DNA from: Patescibacteria group bacterium
Lineage (GTDB): Bacteria; Patescibacteriota; Patescibacteriia; SG8-24
Direction of reading: 5' to 3'
Assembly (NCBI GenBank): GCA_034716415.1
Contig: JAYEJB010000043.1
Span: forward strand, 705-64,704
Length of the DNA: 64,000 nt
Shown: positions 1 to 55,240 of the stretch, piece by piece
Position numbering within the stretch: the first letter of the stretch is position 1
How the letters are laid out: each line of letters begins with the position of its first letter
The notes under the pieces: model-generated
What the model was told of the DNA's origin: nothing
The model's input: only the letters and a program-made list of their open reading frames with translations
Databases searched by the model: none
Program-made: the position numbers and the translations under genes

Positions 1-230
1 GAGGAGCGGAGCGACGCGGCAATCCCGTTCTTAGTATGCTCGCGCACAGCCGAGGAAGGTCCTACCTTTCTTGTCATTGCGAGCGAAGCCACGTCGTTCG
101 CGAACGATATGGCGAAGCGCGGCAATCCCGCCCCCCCTTTTTGTCATTGCGCCCCGCCCATGGCGGGATCCAGCCTTCTTTGATTAAAGATATGTGGCGG
201 GAAGCGAAGCGCGGCAATCCCGTTTCAATA
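1..230. repeat. MITE-like palindromic repeat, family 1 (TTGTCATTGCGAG / GCGAAGCG..GGCAATCCCG modules), compound copy truncated by the window edge
   Basis: Contains ttgtcattgcgagcgaagc, gcgaagcgcggcaatcccg and the ccccgcccatggcgggatcc...gatatgtggcgggaag module. The same modules recur at 5669, 11086, 17051 and 25413. Confidence 0.5.
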
Positions 231-2524: not shown

Positions 2525-3690
2525 GACCGATATTGCTGGTGACAATCGAATATCCGCCGCAGCGTGGGGGCATCGCCACGTATTTGGCGCACATCGCCGA
2601 GAATTTGCCGCACGGCAACATCATCGTACTCGCGCCGGAGATGAAGAGTACGCACGAGTACGACATGAACGCCGGAGTGCCGATCTACCGCTACAAGATG
2701 CTGTGGAAGTATATGCGCCCGCGTTGGCTCCTGGCGTTCTATTGGACTTGGCGGATGTGCCGCAAGGACCGGCCGTCGATGGTGATGGTGAGCCATCTGC
2801 TGAACATGGGTAAGGTCGCGCTCGGCATCAAGCGGGTCCTGGGTATTCCCTACGGTGTCATCCTGCACGGTTATGACGTAGCGCAAGCCAAATCCACGAC
2901 CTACGGGCGGCGTCTGGCCGCGCGGGAGATACTCGGCGGAGCGTCGCTCGTCGTCTGCAACAGCGTGTATACGGGTACGTGGGCCCAGTCGCTCGGCGTG
3001 GATGAGTCGCGCATCGCGTACGTGAATCCGCCGCCGTGGTTGCCGCTCGACACGAAGGCCGATGCGGGAGAGGTCGCCCAGTTCAGGAAAATACATGAAC
3101 TCGACGGCAAGTTCACGCTGTTGTACGTCGGCCGGCTGGTGAAACGAAAAGGCGTCGATACGTGCATCAAGGCGGTGGCCAAACTGCGCGCCGAGGGCTG
3201 TGACGTCAAGTACATCGTCATCGGAGACGGTCCGGACAAGGGGCGGCTCAAGAAGATGGCCATGGACGCGAACGTCGCGGACCATGTCGTGTTCACCGGC
3301 ATGATGAATCCGAATAGGCTGTCGATCCCGTATACCGCGTGCGACGCGTTCGTCATGGTTCCGAGGAGCCTCGACGGCGGCAATATCGAGGGCTACGGCA
3401 TCGTCTATCTGGAGGCCAATATCTTCGGCAGGCCGGTCATCGGTTCCAGGACCGGCGGGGTTCCGGAAGCGGTGATCGACGGGGAGACCGGGTTGTTGGT
3501 CGAGCCGGGTGACGTGGACGGTCTGGTGAAGACGGTCAGGAAGCTCATGAACGACGAATCCCTGCGGAAGAAGCTCGGTGAGGGCGGTCGGGCACGGCTC
3601 GAAAAGGATTATGGCGACAACCGGCAGGCGCGGCGGTTCCTGGCGGCCGTACGGCGCGCCATCGGCGTGACTAAGGAGTATGAAGAGTGA
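2521..3690 (+). CDS. glycosyltransferase family 4 (GT-B, RfaG-like)
   Basis: C-terminal EANIFGRPVIGSRTGGVPE...DGETGLLVEPGD motif typical of GT4 retaining transferases. A 4-nt overlap with the upstream gene implies an operon. Confidence 0.8.
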   Translation: MRPILLVTIEYPPQRGGIATYLAHIAENLPHGNIIVLAPEMKSTHEYDMNAGVPIYRYKMLWKYMRPRWLLAFYWTWRMCRKDRPSMVMVSHLLNMGKVALGIKRVLGIPYGVILHGYDVAQAKSTTYGRRLAAREILGGASLVVCNSVYTGTWAQSLGVDESRIAYVNPPPWLPLDTKADAGEVAQFRKIHELDGKFTLLYVGRLVKRKGVDTCIKAVAKLRAEGCDVKYIVIGDGPDKGRLKKMAMDANVADHVVFTGMMNPNRLSIPYTACDAFVMVPRSLDGGNIEGYGIVYLEANIFGRPVIGSRTGGVPEAVIDGETGLLVEPGDVDGLVKTVRKLMNDESLRKKLGEGGRARLEKDYGDNRQARRFLAAVRRAIGVTKEYEE

Positions 3691-4390
3691 AGCGCCGACA
3701 ATCAGCATCGTCATTCCGGCTTATCAGCATGCACGCGAGCTGCCGGCGTGCCTTCGGAGTATCCTGGAGCAGACGTATACGGATTATGAGATCATCCTGG
3801 TCAATGACGGCAGCACGGACGGCACGGAGAAGGCGCTCGAGCCGTTCATGGATCGCATCACCTACATCAGTCAGGAGAACAAGGGCGGCAACGCGGCCAG
3901 GAACAGGGGATTCATGCAGGCGGCGGGGCGGTATCTACTTTTCTGTGACGCCGATATCGTGATGCGTCCCGACTGTCTTTCGAAGATGCTACGCGCGCTC
4001 GAGACGACCCCGGACGCGTCTTATGCCTATTGTTCGTTCCGTTACGGCTGGAAGAAGTTCCGGTTGTGGCCGTTCGATGCCGACAGGTTGCGCCAGCTGA
4101 ATTATATCCATACCACCTCGCTCATCCGACGGGAGCATTACCCCGGATTCGACGAATCGATCCGTAAACTGCAGGATTGGGATCTGTGGCTGACGATGCT
4201 CGCGGAGAATCATGTCGGAATCTGGATTTCCGAATACCTGTTCACTGCCATTCCGCACAAAGGCGGCATCAGCACCTGGGTGCCGGGCATCTTTTATCGC
4301 ATCCCATGGCGCAAGCTAGGGATCCGCATGCGTTCGGTCGAGAAGTTCCAGGAAGCGGAAGTGATCATCAGGAAGAAACATGGGTTATGA
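3680..4390 (+). CDS. glycosyltransferase family 2
   Basis: N-terminal ISIVIPAYQ...ILVNDGSTDGT GT-A signature followed by a DxD-like CDAD motif. Confidence 0.75.
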   Translation: MKSEAPTISIVIPAYQHARELPACLRSILEQTYTDYEIILVNDGSTDGTEKALEPFMDRITYISQENKGGNAARNRGFMQAAGRYLLFCDADIVMRPDCLSKMLRALETTPDASYAYCSFRYGWKKFRLWPFDADRLRQLNYIHTTSLIRREHYPGFDESIRKLQDWDLWLTMLAENHVGIWISEYLFTAIPHKGGISTWVPGIFYRIPWRKLGIRMRSVEKFQEAEVIIRKKHGL

Positions 4391-4478
4391 GCTTAAAAGC
4401 TAAACAGCTAAAAAGTCTAAAAGAATCGATTCCTTATAGCTTTTCAGCTTTTGGACTTTTCAGCTTTTAAGCTTCGAT
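4390..4478. repeat. AT-rich palindromic repeat, family 2 (AGCTTTTAAGCT-type), ~89 bp imperfect palindrome between two GT2 genes
   Basis: The left arm gcttaaaagctaaacagctaaaaagtctaaaag is the near reverse complement of the right arm cttttcagcttttggacttttcagcttttaagc. The right arm is ~90% identical to 54144..54165. Confidence 0.55.
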
Positions 4479-5345
4479 ATGGATCTATCGATCGTCATAC
4501 TCAACTGGAAGGTGAAGGAGCTGTTGCGGCAGTGTCTGCTTTCGGTATATCGGTATACGAACGGACTCGATTTTGAAGTCATCGCAGTCGACAACGATTC
4601 ACGGGACGGTAGTGTGGAGATGGTGATGAAGGAATTCCCGCAGGCGCAGGTCATCGCGAACAACCGGAATCTCGGTTTCGCGGCCGGCAACAACCCGGGC
4701 ATCGAAGCGGCACGGGGTGAGTTCGTGCTTCTGTTGAATCCGGATACCGAGCTGATGGATAACGCGTTCGAGGCGATGGTTCGCGTCATGCGTGCCAATC
4801 CTGATGTGGCGGTGCTCGGGCCGACGCTGTTGAATACCGATCGCTCCTTGCAACCGTCAGTGCGGGGCTTCCCCACACCGTTGTCGCAGGTGCTCGTCAT
4901 GCTCAAGCTTCATAATTTCTTTCCCAGGCTCAAGCCGGTCATGGAATATTTTTCCAGCGGATTCGACTACCTCGCGCCGTCGAGCGTCGATCAGGTCATG
5001 GGTGCGGCGTTCATGGTCAGGCGGTCGGTGTTCGAGAAGCTGGGACTGCTGGACGAGCGGTTCTTCATCTGGTTCGAGGAGGTCGATTTCTGCAGACGTG
5101 CGGTCGACGCGGGTTATGGTGTGATGTACACGCCGAAAGCGCGTATCGTACATCATGGCGGTGAGAGTTTCGGGCAGGTGTTCGGTCCGAAGAGACAACA
5201 TTATTTGAATTCGAGCCTGCTGAAGTATATGCGAAAGCATTTCGGTCTTGTTGCGGCGATCGGGCTGGCGATACTCTATCCGGCATCCATGACACTGGCC
5301 TGGCTCGCTGAATTTTTCGGACTCAGCGGTACGGGGCGAAGATAG
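4479..5345 (+). CDS. glycosyltransferase family 2 (rhamnosyltransferase-like)
   Basis: LSIVILNWK...VIAVDNDSRDGS GT-A signature, followed by FAAGNNPG and a DxD-like EEVDF motif. Confidence 0.75.
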   Translation: MDLSIVILNWKVKELLRQCLLSVYRYTNGLDFEVIAVDNDSRDGSVEMVMKEFPQAQVIANNRNLGFAAGNNPGIEAARGEFVLLLNPDTELMDNAFEAMVRVMRANPDVAVLGPTLLNTDRSLQPSVRGFPTPLSQVLVMLKLHNFFPRLKPVMEYFSSGFDYLAPSSVDQVMGAAFMVRRSVFEKLGLLDERFFIWFEEVDFCRRAVDAGYGVMYTPKARIVHHGGESFGQVFGPKRQHYLNSSLLKYMRKHFGLVAAIGLAILYPASMTLAWLAEFFGLSGTGRR

Positions 5346-5350
5346 TTCAT

Positions 5351-6952
5351 ATGAACGACAAGGTCAGACTATTTCTCTTACTGGTCAGCGGATACGTGTT
5401 GTTGGAGCTGTTGTCCTGGATCGGCTATAACGATCCGATGTGGAGCAGCCTGTTCTTTTTTATCGTCGTCTTGGCGGTCGCTGTCTTGGCCTGGTTCAGG
5501 CCGGGTCTCGCCGTGGTCGTCGTGCTGGGAGAGCTGTTTGTCGGTTCACAAGGCGGTTACATGCTCACTGTCGGACCGGCGAACGTGGACGGGGCGATAT
5601 TATCTTTAAGAATGGGGCTATTTTTAGCCTTATTCGGACCATGGCTCGCGAGAACGGCATTAGGTCTTTTGTCATTGCGAGGAGCGGAGCGACGAAGCAA
5701 TCCCGACGAGATTGCCGCGGTCCCCCGGATCAAGTCCGGGGTCCCTCGCAATGACAAGGGGTTGGGATGGTATTACGTCATGAAGGAGACAAAGCTGCTG
5801 TGGCCGTACGTGGCGCTCCTCATGGTGTTCGCGTTCGGCGGACTGCGTGGCTTGCTGGCCGGCAACGGATTCGGTAACGTCTTTTTCGACGCCAATGGTT
5901 ACGCGTTCTTCGCGCTTTTTCCGGCGTTCATGGGAGGCTTGCGAGACCTGAGGGCGCGTCGTTTGATGTGGTACGTGCTCGCGGCTGCGGTCACCGTTTC
6001 AGTCGCCAAGGCGCTCGCTGTAATGTATTTCTTCTCGCACCGTCTTTACTACGTCGCAGCGAACATGTACTTGTGGGTCAGGGACACCAGGGTCGGGGAG
6101 GTGACTTTGACGGTCGCCGATTTCCATCGCGTGTTTTTCCAGTCGCATCTTTATGTTCTTGTGGCGATATTTACGGTCTTCCTGTTCGCGGCCAGCGCCA
6201 AGTCAATCAGAAAACCGGGTTTCTGGATCCCGTTCGGGTTGCTGGTCTGGGGAATTATCGCCATGGTACTGGGTCTGTCGCGTAGTTTTTGGTTCGGCGG
6301 ATTCATCGCGGCGCTGACGATGATTGGTCTGCTCATATGGACGAAGGCCGGGAAGGGCCTATGGGGTCGCATGGCGATCGTCGCGCCGGCTTCTCTTGTC
6401 CTGGCGATCGGTATCATCGCCGGAATCTACGCCTTCCCGTTTCCTACCAAGACCGGTGACCTGTCGTTCATGTCGATGTTGAGCGGGCGCGCGTTTTCAT
6501 TAGCTGGTGAGGCCGCCGCGAACAGCCGCTGGACCTTGCTGAAGGAGATGTGGCCGGCCGGCATGGAACACCCGATATTAGGGAGCGGTTTAGGCACCAC
6601 GGTCACATACAGGACCGAGGATCCGCGCCTCTTGGTCGACAACCCGACCGGCGAGTACACTACGTTCGCGTTCGAATGGGGCTACCACGACCTATGGGTC
6701 AAGTTCGGCGTGCTGGGCCTGCTGGTCTACGCCTGGCTCATTGCGGTCATTTTGACGCCGTATTTCGTGTCGTTGAAGATGTGGAAACGCGAAAGCGGCG
6801 CGAATCGCGCGGATGCCATCGTGTTGATAGGTATTATCTCCGGCATGGTAGCCATGCTCGCGACCAATGTTTTCAGCCCATACCTGAACCACCCGCTGGG
6901 AATCGGCCTGCTGATGGCTGTGGCGGCGATTGGGTATAAGAGAGGGGACTAA
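5351..6952 (+). CDS. O-antigen ligase/polymerase-like polytopic membrane protein carrying an in-frame copy of the family-1 MITE
   Basis: 533 aa with >10 TM segments, in the glycan cluster. Residues ~107-136 (LSLRGAERRSNPDEIAAVPRIKSGVPRNDKG) are encoded by repeat copy 5669..5757. Confidence 0.5.
   Translation: MNDKVRLFLLLVSGYVLLELLSWIGYNDPMWSSLFFFIVVLAVAVLAWFRPGLAVVVVLGELFVGSQGGYMLTVGPANVDGAILSLRMGLFLALFGPWLARTALGLLSLRGAERRSNPDEIAAVPRIKSGVPRNDKGLGWYYVMKETKLLWPYVALLMVFAFGGLRGLLAGNGFGNVFFDANGYAFFALFPAFMGGLRDLRARRLMWYVLAAAVTVSVAKALAVMYFFSHRLYYVAANMYLWVRDTRVGEVTLTVADFHRVFFQSHLYVLVAIFTVFLFAASAKSIRKPGFWIPFGLLVWGIIAMVLGLSRSFWFGGFIAALTMIGLLIWTKAGKGLWGRMAIVAPASLVLAIGIIAGIYAFPFPTKTGDLSFMSMLSGRAFSLAGEAAANSRWTLLKEMWPAGMEHPILGSGLGTTVTYRTEDPRLLVDNPTGEYTTFAFEWGYHDLWVKFGVLGLLVYAWLIAVILTPYFVSLKMWKRESGANRADAIVLIGIISGMVAMLATNVFSPYLNHPLGIGLLMAVAAIGYKRGD
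5669..5757. repeat. MITE-like repeat family 1, 89-bp copy inside a CDS (in frame, no stop)
   Basis: ttgtcattgcgaggagcggagcgacgaagcaatcccg...cggggtccctcgcaatgacaa, with terminal inverted repeats ttgtcattgcgag/ctcgcaatgacaa. Confidence 0.6.
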
Positions 6953-7030: not shown

Positions 7031-7825
7031 ATGTCCTCGAGTAACCCATTTATTTTTACCTCTTCGAAAATCTATTTAAAGTTGCTGCTGCTGTCCGCTA
7101 GTATTGTGTTGACCGGTGTGGGTTGCGTTTCCTTTGAGCGGTCTGCCGATATAGGCAGCAGGACGGCTGACAATCAGCAACAATGGACCGCAGTAGAATT
7201 CTGTACGAATATGAGTTCGGAAATAGAGGGTCGGGCGGCTTCCCTGCAGGTTGCGGATGAGCTTAGGCCGTATGTTGACGCCTGGCAGGCAATCATCATG
7301 AATCATTACGGCCTCTCCGAGTCGGAAATGGGCAACATGTTTCTCCTGGCAGACGTCATTCATTTCCCAAAACAATCTTCGGGCAGGATGACCGTGAGCA
7401 TAAGATATGTGGTGAAGGCTGGCGACGTCTATTTCAAACCGCTATCGCTTGACTTTGAAGCTAGAGCTGACGAGGTCGGTCAGATGACGGGCGCTCAAAT
7501 CAAAGACTATCTGATAGGCAAGTATGTCGCGCAGAGTCTAGATGCAGAAGACCCAACCCAGCAGATAATCGTAATGGATGGCATCAATTTAGGGCTCGCC
7601 AAATCCGCGATTAATCAGGTGAGTCAGAAGTCCTGCGCACAATACGCGACGCTCCTCAAGAGCTGCGATGCGGTAGTCAAACCGATCGACTTCATTATTA
7701 AGCCCGGATTGAACAAGGCGTGGCTGTCGGCTGGCGGTCGCAGCGGCGACCAATGTTATTCTGCGACAGTCGATCTTTTTTCGAGCCAGGTGGACTGCGG
7801 TAGACCGACTCCGTGCAGCATTTGA
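7031..7825 (+). CDS. hypothetical lipoprotein (signal peptide with LTGVGC lipobox)
   Basis: 264 aa with an N-terminal hydrophobic segment followed by Cys. No family recognised. Confidence 0.45.
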   Translation: MSSSNPFIFTSSKIYLKLLLLSASIVLTGVGCVSFERSADIGSRTADNQQQWTAVEFCTNMSSEIEGRAASLQVADELRPYVDAWQAIIMNHYGLSESEMGNMFLLADVIHFPKQSSGRMTVSIRYVVKAGDVYFKPLSLDFEARADEVGQMTGAQIKDYLIGKYVAQSLDAEDPTQQIIVMDGINLGLAKSAINQVSQKSCAQYATLLKSCDAVVKPIDFIIKPGLNKAWLSAGGRSGDQCYSATVDLFSSQVDCGRPTPCSI

Positions 7826-7984
7826 TGCAAGTTGAATTGAGTTCTGAACGCGTCCAAGACAGGCAACCAACAAGAAAAACTCGCCTTGCGCGGGCTTTTT
7901 TTATCGTTTAATGAGGTGGGTATAGGGTCAGAGTGTACTAAATACACAGTAATCAGTTCGCTGAACGGGAGCTAACAATAATCT

Positions 7985-8042
7985 GGGGTCAGATCTTTAA
8001 TCTTTAGTTTTTCCGTTGATTCAAGATTAAAGACCTGACCCC
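7985..8042. repeat. ~58-nt imperfect palindrome (hairpin repeat family 3), copy 1
   Basis: ggggtcagatctttaatctt tagtttttccgttgattc aagattaaagacctgacccc. A second copy is at 9979..10043. Confidence 0.6.
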
Positions 8043-8290
8043 GAAGCAGGTTGGCCTGCTGATGACCGTTGCGGCAATAGGATACAAAAACAGGAACTAA
8101 GTTCGAATCCTAGTCTCGTAGCCAAAGCATTGCGGTGCATATGGACCCAGTAGGGTGCCCTAAATATGGGGCTGTCATATGGACCGGAGTGCTATGACCA
8201 ACCGAAAACCCGGGGTGTAGACCTCGGGTTTTTGCATTGACAGTTGCTAGTCAAAATGCGAAGGTCTTATTGGCTAACTGTACATGAAAT

Positions 8291-8560
8291 ATGGTGCTTA
8301 GAACTCAAATCGCTAAAATTAGCAGATACATAAAGGGTCTTTGGTTCAATGCACGCACGTCAAATCTGCGAGCAGTTTTTGATGATGATTTGGATCAGCT
8401 TATTGATTCTCTGGGTTTGCGCGATCAGTTTGAATCTGGAAACATTCGATGCGGTTTCTGTAATGAAGTAATTACGTTCGATAATTTGCGCGCATTGACC
8501 AAGATCAAGGATGAAATTGTGGTAATTTGTGATAAAGCACAGTGTATTGATCGAATATGA
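8291..8560 (+). CDS. hypothetical small protein with a C-terminal zinc-ribbon-like CxxC...CxxxxC motif
   Basis: 89 aa with CGFCNEV...VICDKAQC. It lies in a segment that is clearly AT-rich relative to the flanks, and its stop overlaps the next start (ATGA). Confidence 0.5.
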   Translation: MVLRTQIAKISRYIKGLWFNARTSNLRAVFDDDLDQLIDSLGLRDQFESGNIRCGFCNEVITFDNLRALTKIKDEIVVICDKAQCIDRI

Positions 8561-17050: not shown

Positions 17051-17290
17051 TTGTCATTGCGAGCGGACGCGTCTGCCTATCGGTAGGAAGCAATTCCGTC
17101 GGTTTAAGCCTGATTCACGGGATTGCTTCGTCGCTTCGCTCCTTCCCGCCACATATCTCTAATTCAGAGAAGGCGGGACCCCGCCATGGGCGGGGCGCAA
17201 TGACAAAAGGGGTGAAGAGGCGGAGAAAGACGACGAAGCAATTCCGTCGGAATCGCTTCGTTCCCAGGCTCGCGAGCCGGAGCCCTCATA
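17051..17290. repeat. MITE-like repeat family 1, compound copy downstream of clpB
   Basis: ttgtcattgcgagcggacg...gaagcaattccgtcgg...cgggattgcttcgtcgcttcgc...cttcccgccacatatctctaattcagagaaggcgggaccccgccatgggcggggcgcaatgacaa plus a second gcaattccgtcggaatcgcttcg unit. Confidence 0.6.
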
Positions 17291-17300
17291 ATGATATTGA

Positions 17301-21002: not shown

Positions 21003-21794
21003 ATGTATGGATTCAAGCGGATAAAGATATTGGGAATACCGGTCGATGCGGTGACCCAAGATAAGGCGGTCGAAGTAGTTGCTGACTTTTTGCACGATAA
21101 AGCCGGGCAGAAGGTCTTCACACCTAACCCGGAGATGCTAGTCATGGCGCGGGACAGACCATTATTCAGGGAAGCCTTACAGTCATCAGACCTGTCCATC
21201 CCGGATGGAGCCGGGCTCCTTTGGGCCGCGCGCCTGCTCGGGAAGGATTTGCCGACGCGCGTCACCGGCACGGACATGGTTTCGCGTGTCTGTGGCCTGG
21301 CCGCGGAGGACGGATACGGCATTTTTATGTTGGGTGGGCGACCGGGCGTCGCCGAAAAGGCGGCAGACAGACTAAGAGCCGAGTTTCCGGGATTGCGCAT
21401 CGTCGGCGCGATGAGCGGTGGCCAGGTGAAGTATGACGAAGAGGGAGCACCGATCATGGATTACGGTACCGAACGCGCACTGAATCTCGCTGTGCCGGAT
21501 ATCCTGTTCGTGGCTTTCGGACATGGCAAGCAGGAGGAGTGGATCCACACGCATCTTCAAAAGTTTCCCTCGGTTCGGGTGGCACTCGGCGTCGGGGGTG
21601 CGTTCGATTTCATCTCCGGCGAGTCTAAGCGGGCGCCGGATTTTATGCAGCGGATCGACCTGGAATGGCTCTGGCGGCTCGTCTTGCAGCCTTGGCGTAT
21701 TGGGCGTATTCTGACAGCCACGGTCGTTTTTCCGCTTTTGGTGTTAGGAGAACGGCTGGGAATCGTAAAAACCGAGCTAAAAAGCCTATCGTGA
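21003..21794 (+). CDS. WecB/TagA/CpsF family glycosyltransferase (GT26)
   Basis: ILGIPVD...KVFTPNPEMLVMA...IPDGAGLLWAARLLG...FMLGGRPGVAEKAA...LGVGGAFDFISGESKRAP. Confidence 0.75.
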   Translation: MYGFKRIKILGIPVDAVTQDKAVEVVADFLHDKAGQKVFTPNPEMLVMARDRPLFREALQSSDLSIPDGAGLLWAARLLGKDLPTRVTGTDMVSRVCGLAAEDGYGIFMLGGRPGVAEKAADRLRAEFPGLRIVGAMSGGQVKYDEEGAPIMDYGTERALNLAVPDILFVAFGHGKQEEWIHTHLQKFPSVRVALGVGGAFDFISGESKRAPDFMQRIDLEWLWRLVLQPWRIGRILTATVVFPLLVLGERLGIVKTELKSLS

Positions 21795-21838
21795 TGATGC
21801 TTTTAAGCTGTTGAGCTTTTAAACTTTTAAACTCTGAT

Positions 21839-23353
21839 ATGGTACGCATCAGGTTTGCGCCGTCACCGACGGGATTTCTGCACGTGGGAGGCTTACGCAC
21901 CGCGCTTTATAGCGAGCTGTTCGCCAGGAAGCATGGTGGCGTCTTGATATTGCGGATAGAAGATACGGATCAGGCACGGACCGTTGAAGGAGGCATCGAA
22001 AATATCATTAAAACGCTCGAGTGGGCGGGGATTCAGGTGGATGAAGGGCCGTACATCGATAAGGATGGCAGGCTCGCGCAAAAGGGTGACTTCGGGCCGT
22101 ATATCCAATCGGAGCGCACGGATATATATAAGGAGCAGGTCGAGAAGCTTTTGGAGGGCGGGCACGCTTACCGATGTTTCTGCTGTACGGACACCCTGGC
22201 GAAGATGCGTGAAGAACAGCAGAACGAGGGTGGGCGCACGATGTACGACGGGCGCTGTAAGAATCTGACCGAGAATGAAGTCGCCAAGGAACTGGAGAAG
22301 GGGACTGAATACGTGGTGCGTCTCAAGGTGCCGGACACGGGCGTGACCGCGTTCGACGACGAGATCCGGGGACGGATCGAATTCAGCAACAGTCAGATCG
22401 ATGATCAGGTATTGATGAAGTCCGACGGATTTCCGACCTATCATCTGGCGAACGTCGTCGATGACCACCTGATGGGCGTGACGCATGTGGTGCGCGGCGA
22501 GGAATGGTGTCCCTCGACCCCCAAGCATGTCCTGCTTTATGAAGCGTTCGGCTGGGACAAGCCCGTATTCGCGCATGTACCGCTGTTGTTGAACACGGAC
22601 AAGTCGAAGCTCTCCAAGCGGCAGGGGGACGTCGCGGTCGAGGATTATCGGGATAAAGGTTATCTGCGGGACGCGCTCATAAATTTCGTGGCGTTGCTGG
22701 GCTGGAACCCGACTGCGGACCGGGAGATATACTCGAAGGAAGAGATGATCAAGGCGTTCGATCTGCGCAAGATCAACAAGGGCGGTGCCGTCTTCAACGT
22801 CGAAAAGTTGGATTGGATGAACGGAGAGTATCTGAAGAAGCTCACTGACGGCGATTTGGCGGAAGCCGCGCTGCCTTTCTATGTCGATGCCGGTGTTTTC
22901 GTCGTGCAGGCCGGGAAGTTGATATCCGAAAACATGGGTGAGCCGCTGGAACTGGGCTATCTCGAACAAGTGGTGCCGCTGGAAAAAGAGCGCGTCAAAA
23001 AGCTGAGCGACCTGCCGCAGGCGACGGACTTTTTCTTCCGCGATCTGCTTGAATACGAGGTAGACATGCTACCATGGAAGAAATCGACCGCTGACGTCGC
23101 TCGGGTGAGATTGCGGACCCTAGTTGACCTATTGAAGGAAATGCCGGACAAAAATTTCAAGAACGCGGAAAAGTTGGGCGACGAGGTGCTGAAATACATC
23201 GCCGACAGGGGATACACCAACGCGGAGACACTGTGGCCCATGAGGGTGGCGTTGACCGCCAGCAAGGCCTCACCGAGTCCGTTCGAGGTTGCGGCGGTCC
23301 TGGGTAAGGAGAGGACCATCGCGCGCATGAAGCACGCATTATCGATGTTGTAA
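21839..23353 (+). CDS. gltX: glutamyl-tRNA synthetase
   Basis: RFAPSPTGFLHVGGLRTAL (HIGH-like) and KLSKRQG (KMSKS-like). Confidence 0.9.
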   Translation: MVRIRFAPSPTGFLHVGGLRTALYSELFARKHGGVLILRIEDTDQARTVEGGIENIIKTLEWAGIQVDEGPYIDKDGRLAQKGDFGPYIQSERTDIYKEQVEKLLEGGHAYRCFCCTDTLAKMREEQQNEGGRTMYDGRCKNLTENEVAKELEKGTEYVVRLKVPDTGVTAFDDEIRGRIEFSNSQIDDQVLMKSDGFPTYHLANVVDDHLMGVTHVVRGEEWCPSTPKHVLLYEAFGWDKPVFAHVPLLLNTDKSKLSKRQGDVAVEDYRDKGYLRDALINFVALLGWNPTADREIYSKEEMIKAFDLRKINKGGAVFNVEKLDWMNGEYLKKLTDGDLAEAALPFYVDAGVFVVQAGKLISENMGEPLELGYLEQVVPLEKERVKKLSDLPQATDFFFRDLLEYEVDMLPWKKSTADVARVRLRTLVDLLKEMPDKNFKNAEKLGDEVLKYIADRGYTNAETLWPMRVALTASKASPSPFEVAAVLGKERTIARMKHALSML

Positions 23354-25412: not shown

Positions 25413-25527
25413 TTGTCATTGCGAGGGAGATTCGCAGGCGACCGTGGCAATCCCGTCGGGAATGGATAGGATCGCTTCGTCGGCTGCGCCTGTCTGCCCG
25501 GCGGGCAAGGCCTCCTCACAATGACAA
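25413..25527. repeat. MITE-like repeat family 1 copy
   Basis: ttgtcattgcgagggagattcgcaggcgaccgtggcaatcccgtcgggaatgg...cctcctcacaatgacaa. Confidence 0.6.
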
Positions 25528-45898: not shown

Positions 45899-45907
45899 AT
45901 TTTTCTT

Positions 45908-46203
45908 TCTGTGGCGGGGCAGGGGCCCCTCCTGCGTAGTTGACCGGTCTTAGGGAGCTTCGCTTCGCTCTGGTGAAATCCGTGCAAGTGAGGTGTGGTT
46001 TCTGTGGCGGGGCAGGGGCCCCTCCATCCAGACTGACCGCTCCTAGGGAGCTTCGCTTCGCTCTGGTGTTGTGGCGGACCAGGGGGTCCTCCGCTGATAC
46101 TGACCGCTCCTAGGGTGGTTCGCATTGCTCTGGTGTTGTGGCGGACCAGGGGGTCCTCCGCTGATACTGACCGCTCCTAGGGTGGTTCGCATTCGCTCTG
46201 GGA
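45908..46203. repeat. tandem direct repeats, 4 x ~68 bp: units 45908-45975, 46001-46068, 46069-46135, 46136-46203
   Basis: Units (t)tgtggcgg[ggcaggggcccctcc|accagggggtcctcc]...ctgaccg(g/c)tc(t/c)tagggagcttcgcttcgctctggtg. Each carries a short palindrome, aggggcccct or ggaccagggggtcc. Confidence 0.7.
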
Positions 46204-46249: not shown

Positions 46250-46363
46250 CCTGTGTACAAGTCATACGACTTGCACACAGGAAGAACCCGGCAACTACTG
46301 CTCGGCTGACCGGCTTGCACACAGGAAGAACCCGGCAACTGGTGTTCGGCTGACCGACTTGCG
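46250..46363. repeat. perfect 14-bp-stem hairpin (cctgtgtacaagtc atac gacttgcacacagg) followed by 2 x ~44-bp direct repeats (cttgcacacaggaagaacccggcaact..tg.tcggctgaccg)
   Basis: Read directly from the sequence. Confidence 0.65.
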
Positions 46364-53924: not shown

Positions 53925-54170
53925 CTAGGAATCTGAATCCTAAGAGCTAAACGGCTTAAAAGCCTAAAAGCTTTTTTAGAATGAACCCATAACGAGTTTC
54001 ATGCCCTTCGATGCGTAGCTGTAGGCTTTATGCCCGCCCGTCTCTCGCCAAGTTCTGGGCAGGGACAAGCCCTGCAACTACGGCAAACCGACGAAAAACG
54101 CGCCATGATTTCAATTTAATAACTTTTCAGCTTTTTAGCTGTTAAGCTTTTGGACTTTTAAGCTCTTTAT
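53925..54170. repeat. family-2 AT-rich palindromic repeat arms flanking the mreC-mreB spacer (gagctaaacggcttaaaagcctaaaagc ... cagctttttagctgttaagcttttggacttttaagctc)
   Basis: The right arm 54128..54165 is ~90% identical to 4446..4467. The left arm is a partial inverted copy. Confidence 0.5.
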
Positions 54171-54172
54171 CT

Positions 54173-55240
54173 TCAATACGCGGCAATCATGTCCTTTTGT
54201 GTCTCCTGTGAAGACGGCAAGGCGACGGTCTGCAGAAGATCGGGATTGTCGAGCAGGATGCCCGTGCCGCGCACCACGCAGGTCAGCGGATCGTCCGTAA
54301 TACGGACCGGGATAGCCGCAGCTCTGGAAATGACGGTATCCATTCCTTTCAATAAGGCGCCCCCACCCGAAAGAACGATGCCCCGTTCATAGATGTCGGC
54401 GACCAATTCGGGCGGCGTCATCTCAAGCGCGGCTTTGATGCTTTCCGAGATAGACTTCACTGACCGCGACAGGGACTGACGGATCTGCGCGTCGCTGACC
54501 ATTATCTCCTTCGGCAATCCGGTGATCATGTCTCGTCCGCGCATTTCAATCTCCAACGGCTCATCGAGCTCCATCGCCGAGCCGGTCCTCATCTTGATGT
54601 TTTCGGCCACACGCTCTCCGAGCAGGAGGTTGAAATTTTCGCGGGCGAAATTGACGATGCTCTTGTTCATCTCGTCGCCGGCTATACGCAACGACCTCCA
54701 GGTCACGACCCCACCGAGCGAGATGACGGCGATCTCCGTGGTCCCGCCGCCGATATCCACCACCATGTTGCCGAGCGGTTCGGTGATCGGCAACCTCGCT
54801 CCGATAGCGGCCGCCATCGGCTCCTCTACCAGGAAGACCTCACGCGCACCGGCGTTCAAGGCGGCGTCCTCGACCGCCTTCCTTTCCACCTCAGTCAGAT
54901 CAAGCGGCACACCGACCACGACCCTCGGTCGCGGCATCAGCGAGAAGCCGTCCTTAAGGATCCGCTCGATGAAATACTTGAGCATCTTTTCCGTGACCTC
55001 GAAGTCCGAGATGATCCCCGAAACGAGTGGTCGCACCGTCACGATATGCGACGGCGTCTTGCCGACCATGTCCTTGGCGGACTGACCGACAGCGACGATC
55101 TGACCTGTCCGCGTATTCAAAGCCACCACCGATGGTTCGTTGATGGCGATTCCCTTGTCCTTACAATAAATCAGAGTATTGGCTGTACCGAGATCGATAC
55201 CGAGATCTTTGGAGAATTTTCCGAATATGCTACTGAACAT
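54173..55240 (-). CDS. mreB: rod shape-determining protein MreB
   Basis: Actin-fold phosphate-1 motif GIDLGTANTLIY and the motifs further downstream. Confidence 0.9.
   Translation of the reverse strand: MFSSIFGKFSKDLGIDLGTANTLIYCKDKGIAINEPSVVALNTRTGQIVAVGQSAKDMVGKTPSHIVTVRPLVSGIISDFEVTEKMLKYFIERILKDGFSLMPRPRVVVGVPLDLTEVERKAVEDAALNAGAREVFLVEEPMAAAIGARLPITEPLGNMVVDIGGGTTEIAVISLGGVVTWRSLRIAGDEMNKSIVNFARENFNLLLGERVAENIKMRTGSAMELDEPLEIEMRGRDMITGLPKEIMVSDAQIRQSLSRSVKSISESIKAALEMTPPELVADIYERGIVLSGGGALLKGMDTVISRAAAIPVRITDDPLTCVVRGTGILLDNPDLLQTVALPSSQETQKDMIAAY

Follow-up and report, generated by a model that had tools for sequence, protein, structure and literature searches.

How can a dispersed repeat whose length is not a multiple of three come to lie within a protein-coding gene and leave that gene readable? 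The question was raised by a 64,000-nucleotide stretch of a Patescibacteria genome (contig JAYEJB010000043.1 of assembly GCA_034716415.1, positions 705 to 64,704, hereafter the window), in which an 89-nt palindromic repeat at 5669..5757 is read through in frame inside 5351..6952, a gene for a polytopic membrane protein. A first-pass annotation, made from the letters alone, had labelled the repeat MITE-like (after miniature inverted-repeat transposable elements, MITEs) and saw in its in-frame survival either a tolerated loop insertion turned into coding sequence or a sign that 5351..6952 is really two genes. The answer that we favour, and consider probable, is that the repeat is a CGTC/TGTC-tagged hairpin of the REP type (repetitive extragenic palindrome) that lies in frame in one intact Wzy_C (O-antigen ligase) gene, is tolerated there, and belongs to a family that would be spread in trans by Ssn, a small GIY-YIG nuclease.

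The case for a single gene comes from its homologues. The product of 5351..6952 matches PF04932 (Wzy_C) with an E-value of 4.3e-8 (Pfam), and 239 homologues were found, the top match at 100% being from a Patescibacteria metagenome-assembled genome (MAG). Among the 120 listed of these 239, most are 500-550 aa long and nearly all match the query over more than 85% of its length, one protein each; since the homologues span the query in a single protein and the frame runs on across 533 codons without a stop, the two-gene reading was rejected. The first 106 residues, which precede the insert, belong to the same protein in all homologues. An alignment of 20 sequences (19 homologues and the query) has 113 invariant columns, which lie to either side of the insert, and all of them are kept in the window's protein, so that 5351..6952 remains one open reading frame (ORF) with every family-invariant residue intact. 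The insertion might nevertheless have inactivated the gene and the open frame be a coincidence: 89 is not a multiple of 3, two of the three forward frames are open across 5669-5757, which makes a chance read-through not very unlikely, and the repeat is predicted to form a branched hairpin that is very stable as RNA (-53 kcal/mol, z -6.8) and also folds as DNA (-31 kcal/mol, z -6.5). Against this stand the uninterrupted frame, the retained invariant columns and the N-terminal part common to all homologues, together with 83% identity to the orthologue P0002 without further lesions and an AlphaFold2 model with a pTM of 0.82. A pseudogene, or a pair of genes, is on this evidence an improbable account of the locus.

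As the first-pass annotation had said, the frame across the repeat reads ...LSLRGAERRSNPDEIAAVPRIKSGVPRNDKG...; the peptide GAERRSNPDEIAAVPR is an example of what read-through of the repeat encodes. The insert sits between the motifs WLARTxxxL and xWxxxMKExxLLWPY, where every aligned homologue has a short, basic stretch whose length varies. It is missing from the aligned orthologues P0002, P0003 and P0004, the nearest two of which, P0002 and P0003, are 26 residues shorter at this site; in the DNA the window is longer by 78 nt than L001 and L002 and by 57 nt than L003. Because the net difference to the nearest orthologues is +78 nt, or 26 codons, the frame puzzle can be read as an 89-nt gain combined with a loss of about 11 nt inside an indel-tolerant loop. 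The repeat has landed in the short, basic, variable-length part of the gene that encodes a loop between two transmembrane helices. In the AlphaFold2 model, helix 86-115 runs into the first residues of the insert and is followed by coil, the per-residue confidence (pLDDT) falling below 50 at residues 123-134. The 30-residue peptide of the insert has a mean hydropathy (GRAVY) of -1.10, with seven K+R and four D+E. When helices are counted from the N-terminus, the loop with the insert falls on the K/R-rich side, and it is probably cytoplasmic. Most likely the insert is translated into a hydrophilic, disordered loop that is tolerated rather than useful. The earlier idea of a tolerated loop insertion in a membrane protein is borne out by the conserved flanks, by the closest relatives without the insert and by the low-confidence coil. 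Two comparisons that the annotation had suggested were carried through: the one with orthologues found the insert lacking in all three, and the one on topology placed it in a loop between helices, whose side of the membrane is predicted from helix counting.

The intragenic copy is one of a dispersed family. Its perfect 13-nt ends, TTGTCATTGCGAG and CTCGCAATGACAA, are the termini shared by the repeats, and a search of the window for TTGTCATTGCGAG with up to two mismatches on both strands returned 13 matches, against 1.77 expected from shuffled sequence; none of 100 shuffles reached 13. The claim of a dispersed repeat with common terminal inverted repeats thus held up. A reading of the sequence, together with the positions of the internal GCAATCC/GGATTGC boxes, gave the refined copy coordinates, which are collected in Table 1 with those of the host gene.

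Table 1. The host gene, the two units of its intragenic repeat and the other repeat copies of the window.
Feature	Position	Strand	Remarks
Wzy_C (O-antigen ligase) domain gene, 533-aa polytopic membrane protein	5351..6952	+	single gene; hosts the repeat
Intragenic head-to-head unit pair, 89 nt	5669..5757	.	perfect 13-nt ends; residues 107-136 in frame
Left unit of the intragenic pair	5669..5705	+	tag TTGTC, 5-nt stem half ATTGC, loop GAGGAGCGGAGCGACGAA, stem half GCAAT, tail CCCG; read from the sequence
Right unit of the intragenic pair, inverse orientation	5709..5757	-	side hairpin CCCCGGA-TCAAG-TCCGGGG at 5720-5744 replaces the usual loop
Cluster of three same-orientation units	1..222	+	1-27 (cut by the window edge), 71-130, 141-222 with nested ~60-nt module
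Complete pair, nested module in left arm	11078..11198	.	def-fmt spacer; fold z -8.3
Single whole right-type unit	11794..11838	-	31 nt downstream of the priA stop codon
Complete pair, nested module in right arm	17051..17206	.	fold z -7.3
Degenerate second pair	~17221-17292		after 17051..17206; 9 nt from the clpB stop codon
Complete pair between two minus-strand genes	25413..25527	.	54 nt downstream of the stop of a CAP-domain gene; z -4.3

All loci of the earlier copy list proved real, with some boundaries redrawn. The start given as 11086 moved to 11078, the supposed fragment 11824..11838 is part of a whole unit, and the spans 1..230 and 17051..17290 do contain repeats, the former resolved as three units that end at 222 and the latter as a pair followed by a degenerate pair that ends at ~17292. 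The list had missed an exact 12-mer, TGTCATTGCGAG, at 26933-26944, in ORF 26892-27392; it codes for ..GVIARF.. in a hydrophobic stretch and has no adjoining repeat part. It may be a remnant, since even an exact 11-mer is expected only ~0.03 times in the window. All copies are confined to the first 27 kb, with none in the remaining 37 kb (27001-64000). The left unit of the intragenic pair follows the same formula as the units of the wider family described below and is 96% complementary to 17118-17143; side hairpins analogous to that of the right unit occur in the family members L033, L053, L058 and L077. The nested palindrome GCAATCCCG/CGGGATTGC is present in window copies as first described, and so is the ~60-nt module in three of them (141-204, 11078-11142 and, on the reverse strand, 17142-17206). 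The module consists of two GC-rich hairpins (CCCCGCC-CATGG-CGGGG and TCCCGCC...GGCGGGA), always directly after TTGTCATTGCG, and its arms in the window are CCCCGCC..GGCGGGG and TCCCGCC..GGCGGGAAG. Similar CCCGCC..GGCGG hairpins were seen in a locus of another member of the Patescibacteria (L124, ~2950-3000 and 3500-3560), where they are noncoding, lie downstream of a small GIY-YIG gene, and extend in and beyond RNase P RNA-like sequence. Pfam confirmed fmt, def, priA, lexA and clpB as neighbours, and with them the def-fmt-priA spacer and lexA/clpB contexts that had been assigned to the copies.

When the two nearest relatives, L002 and L003, are set beside the window, the same gene order is found, with glycosyltransferases, ligase, fmt, def and priA, and neither of these syntenic loci holds a copy of the 11-nt repeat end. 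The fmt-def spacer is 247 nt in the window, where it contains a repeat, versus 1 nt in L002, and the def-priA spacer, likewise with a repeat, is 112 nt versus 4 nt. By this sequence comparison the window copies are shown to be lineage-specific gains. The same relatives differ from the window in the interval between the ligase gene and fmt (7031-10090, ~3.1 kb), which holds ORFs 7031-7825, 8291-8560 and 8557-9597 and is missing from both L002 and L003, where fmt directly follows the ligase gene. Within it, 48 nt that end in TAA (8053-8100) match the final 48 nt of the ligase gene (6905-6952) at 75% identity, which makes them look like what is left of the 3' end of a paralogous or displaced copy.

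The family reaches far beyond the window. A scan of one genome per species with the pattern GTCATTGCGAG-N35-65-CTCGCAATGAC returned at least 120 loci, from Alpha-, Beta-, Gamma- and Deltaproteobacteria, Bacteroidota, Chloroflexota, Planctomycetota and Cyanobacteria; further hosts among the matches listed are Patescibacteria (including Berkelbacteria), Zixibacteria, Margulisbacteria, Moduliflexus and Rickettsiales. The ATTGC class, with the ends ATTGCGAG...GAAGCAAT, is present in at least ten phyla and, among the matches listed in IMG/VR for the same pattern, on many viral contigs; its 11-nt ends are nearly identical across these hosts, Patescibacteria among them. The 124 elements that were analysed share one plan: YGTC, ATTGC, GAG, a variable segment, GAA/GTG, GCAAT, C, a variable centre of 10-38 nt, and then the mirror image. 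Each element is a head-to-head pair of ~35-50-nt units of the form (C/T)GTC-ATTGC-GAG...GAA-GCAAT-C, with CGNAGC, GAGCGAAGCGAC or a small hairpin of its own as the variable segment; TTGTCATTGCGAGGAGCGGAGCGACGAAGCAATCCCG is such an ATTGC-class unit in single-stranded form. It is these head-to-head, (C/T)GTC-tagged units that place the repeat in the CGTC-tagged REP superfamily. Among the 124 members, GTC is preceded by C in 88 and by T in 28, and at position +1 there are 94 with G and 26 with A. GCAAT is followed by C in 101 of 102, and 61 of 102 left arms and 58 of 102 right arms have CCA as their tail; the window copies have the tag TGTC and the tail CCC(G). Family copies also lie in frame in uvrA of a gammaproteobacterial MAG (L041 2835-2921), between the two ABC halves, with the insert VIASKAKQSHSTGSANNGIATSPLAPRNDN, and in guaA of another gammaproteobacterial MAG (L036 4466-4543), in the glutamine-amidotransferase domain. 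Such cases stand out from the elements at large, which are depleted in long open frames (18% versus 61% of random positions). A literature search with nucleotide strings, translated peptide motifs and Patescibacteria combined with MITE found nothing relevant. An origin from integron attC sites, from Xer/dif sites or from tRNA-like sequence was considered and dropped, as the end motifs that define such sites (GTTRRRY/RYYYAAC, or a dif core) are not in the sequence.

This anatomy bears on the MITE label. A classical MITE would be a deletion derivative of an insertion sequence with a DDE transposase, its terminal inverted repeats serving cut-and-paste or copy-and-paste transposition, and the perfect 13-nt terminal repeats, sizes of 89-160 nt, and presence/absence differences from syntenic relatives all suit that description. 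The fixed-length target-site duplication of a MITE, which the first-pass annotation had proposed to look for, is nevertheless lacking: none was found in 123 members, with direct repeats of 2-9 nt sought at offsets of 0-7, both symmetric and asymmetric. Clustering of the proteins near the 124 elements yielded only ABC ATPases, short-chain dehydrogenases and similar families as recurrent neighbours, and no transposase. Single units and same-orientation clusters occur as well as pairs, and the two arms of a pair are independent unit types: only 27 of 102 elements have arms of the same length, and arms are no more alike within elements (0.252) than between them (0.238), so that an element is better seen as a pair of interchangeable units. 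On the same ground, the notion of one co-evolving hairpin or inverted repeat was dropped. Without duplications, a nearby transposase or matched arms, the label MITE-like is unsupported, and descent from a DDE element seems very remote. The flanks have a weak excess of complementarity, at 4.0 versus 2.7 of 12 positions, most of it at Y/R positions beside the tag; long complementary flanks occur in 4 of the 124 elements.

Whole pairs fold well, with z-scores of -4 to -8, and this invites another explanation, in which the repeats are functional structured RNAs (terminators, mRNA stabilisers or small RNAs) kept by selection at each site instead of being mobile, the intragenic copy then serving as a regulatory hairpin. 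The intergenic copies indeed lie 9-54 nt downstream of stop codons or in operon spacers, some family members carry UUCG-type side hairpins, and many REPs have been argued to be transcribed (Di Nocera, De Gregorio & Rocco 2013, PMC3733652). Rfam, however, gave no gathering-score match in the window or in 16 family loci and nothing meaningful at E <=10 for 5600-5830. It is the stem and tag that are conserved, while loops and spacer vary; both orientations are found; and the same sequence recurs in at least ten phyla and on viral contigs, while syntenic relatives are without it. Structured RNA as the primary nature of the repeats is improbable; an RNA function fits as a secondary role, not as an independent origin at each site. 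Under the reading preferred here, of a tolerated mobile hairpin, the intergenic copies lie just downstream of gene ends, like other REPs, and if they have any effect, it is probably as RNA or DNA hairpins.

For the spread of such units, the closest precedent is SsnA, a 94-aa GIY-YIG nuclease that binds and cuts CGTC-type hairpins only as single-stranded DNA; cleavage depends on the bases that immediately precede the palindrome and binding on the C that immediately follows it, and ssn genes are flanked by repeats (NTS, Ssn-related motifs or SRM) (Chenal et al. 2025, Nat Commun, PMC11893778). By analogy, family units would fold in single-stranded DNA and be recognised by a small GIY-YIG Ssn supplied in trans, with the GTC tag serving in cleavage and the C after the stem in binding, and would spread without target-site duplication. 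The association of ssn with such repeats was reproduced. CGTC-type hairpin units lie on the flanks of the ssn homologues in Neisseria and Azospirillum, CCTC-tagged ones on those of the S. meliloti homologue, and in a scan with proteobacterial Ssn, 78 of 80 metagenomic ssn loci had YGTCAT units in their flanks, almost all of the ATTCCCGC class. In Bacteroidota and a cyanobacterium, units that like those of the window combine a 5-bp stem with a long loop, but have other stem sequences, flank or enclose the ssn genes (L219, L220, L222-L224): the unit is TGTC ATCCC GAGGAACGA GGGAT C in Spirosoma and TGTC ATCTC GAGCGAGCGTAGCGACGA GAGAT C in a Mucilaginibacter-like genome, the Mucilaginibacter gene lying inside a unit pair, and Planktothrix ssn too is flanked or enclosed by 5-bp-stem units. 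For the ATTGC class, a single gene came out of a tblastn search with eight Ssn-type queries against the window and 240 family loci (2.08 Mb). It is located in L327 and encodes a 98-aa GIY-YIG protein (PF01541, E 9.5e-15). A left ATTGCGAG unit lies 40 nt upstream of it and a right-unit GATTGCCGCG box directly after its stop, so that the gene occupies the spacer of a ATTGCGAG-class pair, and further complete pairs lie on both sides. In L354 an ATTGC-class unit lies ~60 nt upstream of another ssn homologue. For the genome of the window, the evidence on the Ssn step comes from these two loci elsewhere, with ATTGC-class units beside or around ssn.

Several observations weigh against the reading of a tolerated, Ssn-spread REP hairpin. 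Both loci of the cognate link, L327 and L354, are in repeat-dense regions. The 64-kb window and the 120 genomic family loci yielded neither an ssn gene nor one for RAYT or another transposase, and the small GIY-YIG genes of other Patescibacteria (L124 and L128 inspected) are not flanked by the repeat. The published SRM search pattern matches none of the 124 family pairs and nothing in the window, and none of the 5-bp-stem classes near ssn genes; on the positive controls it gave 8 matches in Neisseria (L132) and 4 in Azospirillum (L133). In dimensions, too, the class departs from the published CGTC-1..4, which have a stem of 8-9 bp starting with AT and a loop of 4-5 nt (PMC3733652), whereas the ATTGC/GCAAT stem is 5 bp and the loop 9-25 nt. 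A single unit is predicted not to fold alone (z ~0). Within the host gene, which is presumed to be translated through the insert and to give a functional protein, the strong hairpin could impair expression of 5351..6952, and the exact insertion and ancestral junction cannot, from the sequences compared, be recovered, because the loop itself varies in length among orthologues.

The survey of small GIY-YIG genes yielded some observations of its own. The sole ATTGCGAG pair in the metagenomic ssn flanks is in L204, where two tandem ssn copies of the ATTCCGGGG class occupy 616-1060 and the first is broken after ..FYVYLLA by a ~170-nt insertion with this pair (674-760). As it lies in an insertion that disrupts an ssn copy, the pair is not cognate; a hairpin repeat of one class has here inserted into the nuclease gene of another. 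A local search for GIY-YIG by regular expression and with YhbQ/YazA-type queries gave no match. In Patescibacteria, small GIY-YIG genes (84-87 aa; L124 2501-2761, L128-L131 2501-2755) lie amid long noncoding stretches, with an RNase P RNA-like sequence (GGAAAGTCCGGAC...) or with tRNA genes as direct neighbours. Many of their relatives come from contigs of ~1 kb, and this points to multi-copy elements of the homing type. Two plasmid-collection records, from Sphingomonas and Methylobacterium (L134, L136), hold a distant clade of small GIY-YIG proteins, ~35% identical to Ssn, with other hairpin flanks that include CCTCATCCTGAGG..., a repeat type that we take to be common in Rhizobiales. Several repeat classes may each have a nuclease clade of their own.

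The window also contains other repeats. Short arrays with an 8-nt period (AGCTTTTN or its complement), a second family unrelated to the first, occupy intergenic positions 4372-4479, 21786-21839 and 54109-54178, some as inverted pairs. Tandem repeats occur at 45906-46202, as four copies of a ~67-93-nt unit that are 61-87% identical to the reference copy, and at 46267-46354, as two copies of a 44-nt unit with 91% identity.

The significance of the locus is threefold. With it, the "protein-coding palindromes" known from Rickettsia and further Proteobacteria reach the reduced genomes of Patescibacteria, in a clean and checkable case with one gene, close orthologues without the insert, and the insert in a loop. 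It draws attention to one CGTC-tagged hairpin sequence class that is present across most bacterial phyla and on (pro)viral contigs; as the class escapes published search motifs, censuses of Ssn repeats and the annotation of short "hypothetical proteins" born of repeats are incomplete. Such repeats also generate spurious small ORFs and apparent protein insertions, and their recognition avoids mistaking these for new domains or split genes. A more daring suggestion, which we advance tentatively and hold to be rather doubtful as a whole, is that the ATTGCGAG...GAAGCAAT class, or in a wider sense all YGTC-tagged units with a 5-bp stem and long loop, might constitute an undescribed major branch of the Ssn-associated repeats, overlooked by both the CGTC-1..4 dimensions and the SRM pattern. 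It would be paired with GIY-YIG nucleases of its own, encoded within a repeat pair much as an insertion sequence encloses its gene, and would be a promiscuous single-strand-DNA element that spreads horizontally and time and again writes loops of 25-30 residues into housekeeping proteins.

Among known systems, REPINs are doublets of GTAG-tagged REPs mobilised by RAYT, a Y1 HUH transposase that is single-copy and acts in trans. The family described here resembles them as inverted pairs of short palindromic units that form a larger hairpin, without target-site duplication and with singlets as remnants, and differs in its (C/T)GTC tag. A tblastn search with eight RAYT/TIRYT sequences (from the supplement of PMC3733652) found none in the window and one marginal match, at E 0.003 and ~4 kb from an element, in 0.93 Mb around the 124 elements. 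With MITEs the family has terminal inverted repeats in common. Comparable with the intragenic copy are the Rickettsia palindromic elements (RPEs), RPE-1 and others, which Ogata et al. reportedly described in 2000 and 2002 as inserted in frame in protein genes; RPE-1 is said to be ~150 nt long and restricted to Rickettsia. They too, as also described in PMC3733652, are palindromic in-frame inserts that add a surface or loop peptide without destroying the protein; RPE-1 is longer than the repeat of the window, and the RPE classes were compared by tag. The likeness to the Ssn system lies in the near-invariant GTC before the palindrome and C after it, at the positions reported for cleavage and binding, and in the ssn genes elsewhere that are flanked or enclosed by units of the same formula, those of L327 and L354 being of the ATTGC class. 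The CGTC-tagged REP superfamily (PMC3733652), in which the repeat is placed, has the unpaired terminal tags CGTC, TGTC and CCTC, a 3-nt tail of consensus CCA and mostly head-to-head pairs; its members are mostly intergenic near gene 3' ends, have no transposase, occur in many phyla and include Rickettsia RPE-4 and RPE-6 and Neisseria dRS3, and their in-frame intragenic copies code for 20-30 residues, often in uvr, rec or pol genes. The present repeats share the tag (TGTC in the window), the AT at the start of the stem, the C or CCA tail, the head-to-head pairing, the want of a RAYT or a recurrent transposase, and in-frame copies, here in the Wzy_C gene, uvrA and guaA. Patescibacteria are not among the phyla of that study, whose authors noted that unusual classes may have escaped detection. 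The phenomenon of in-frame palindromes is therefore already known from Rickettsia and other Proteobacteria; what is new is the Patescibacteria host, the Wzy_C target and the ATTGC class with its 5-bp stem.

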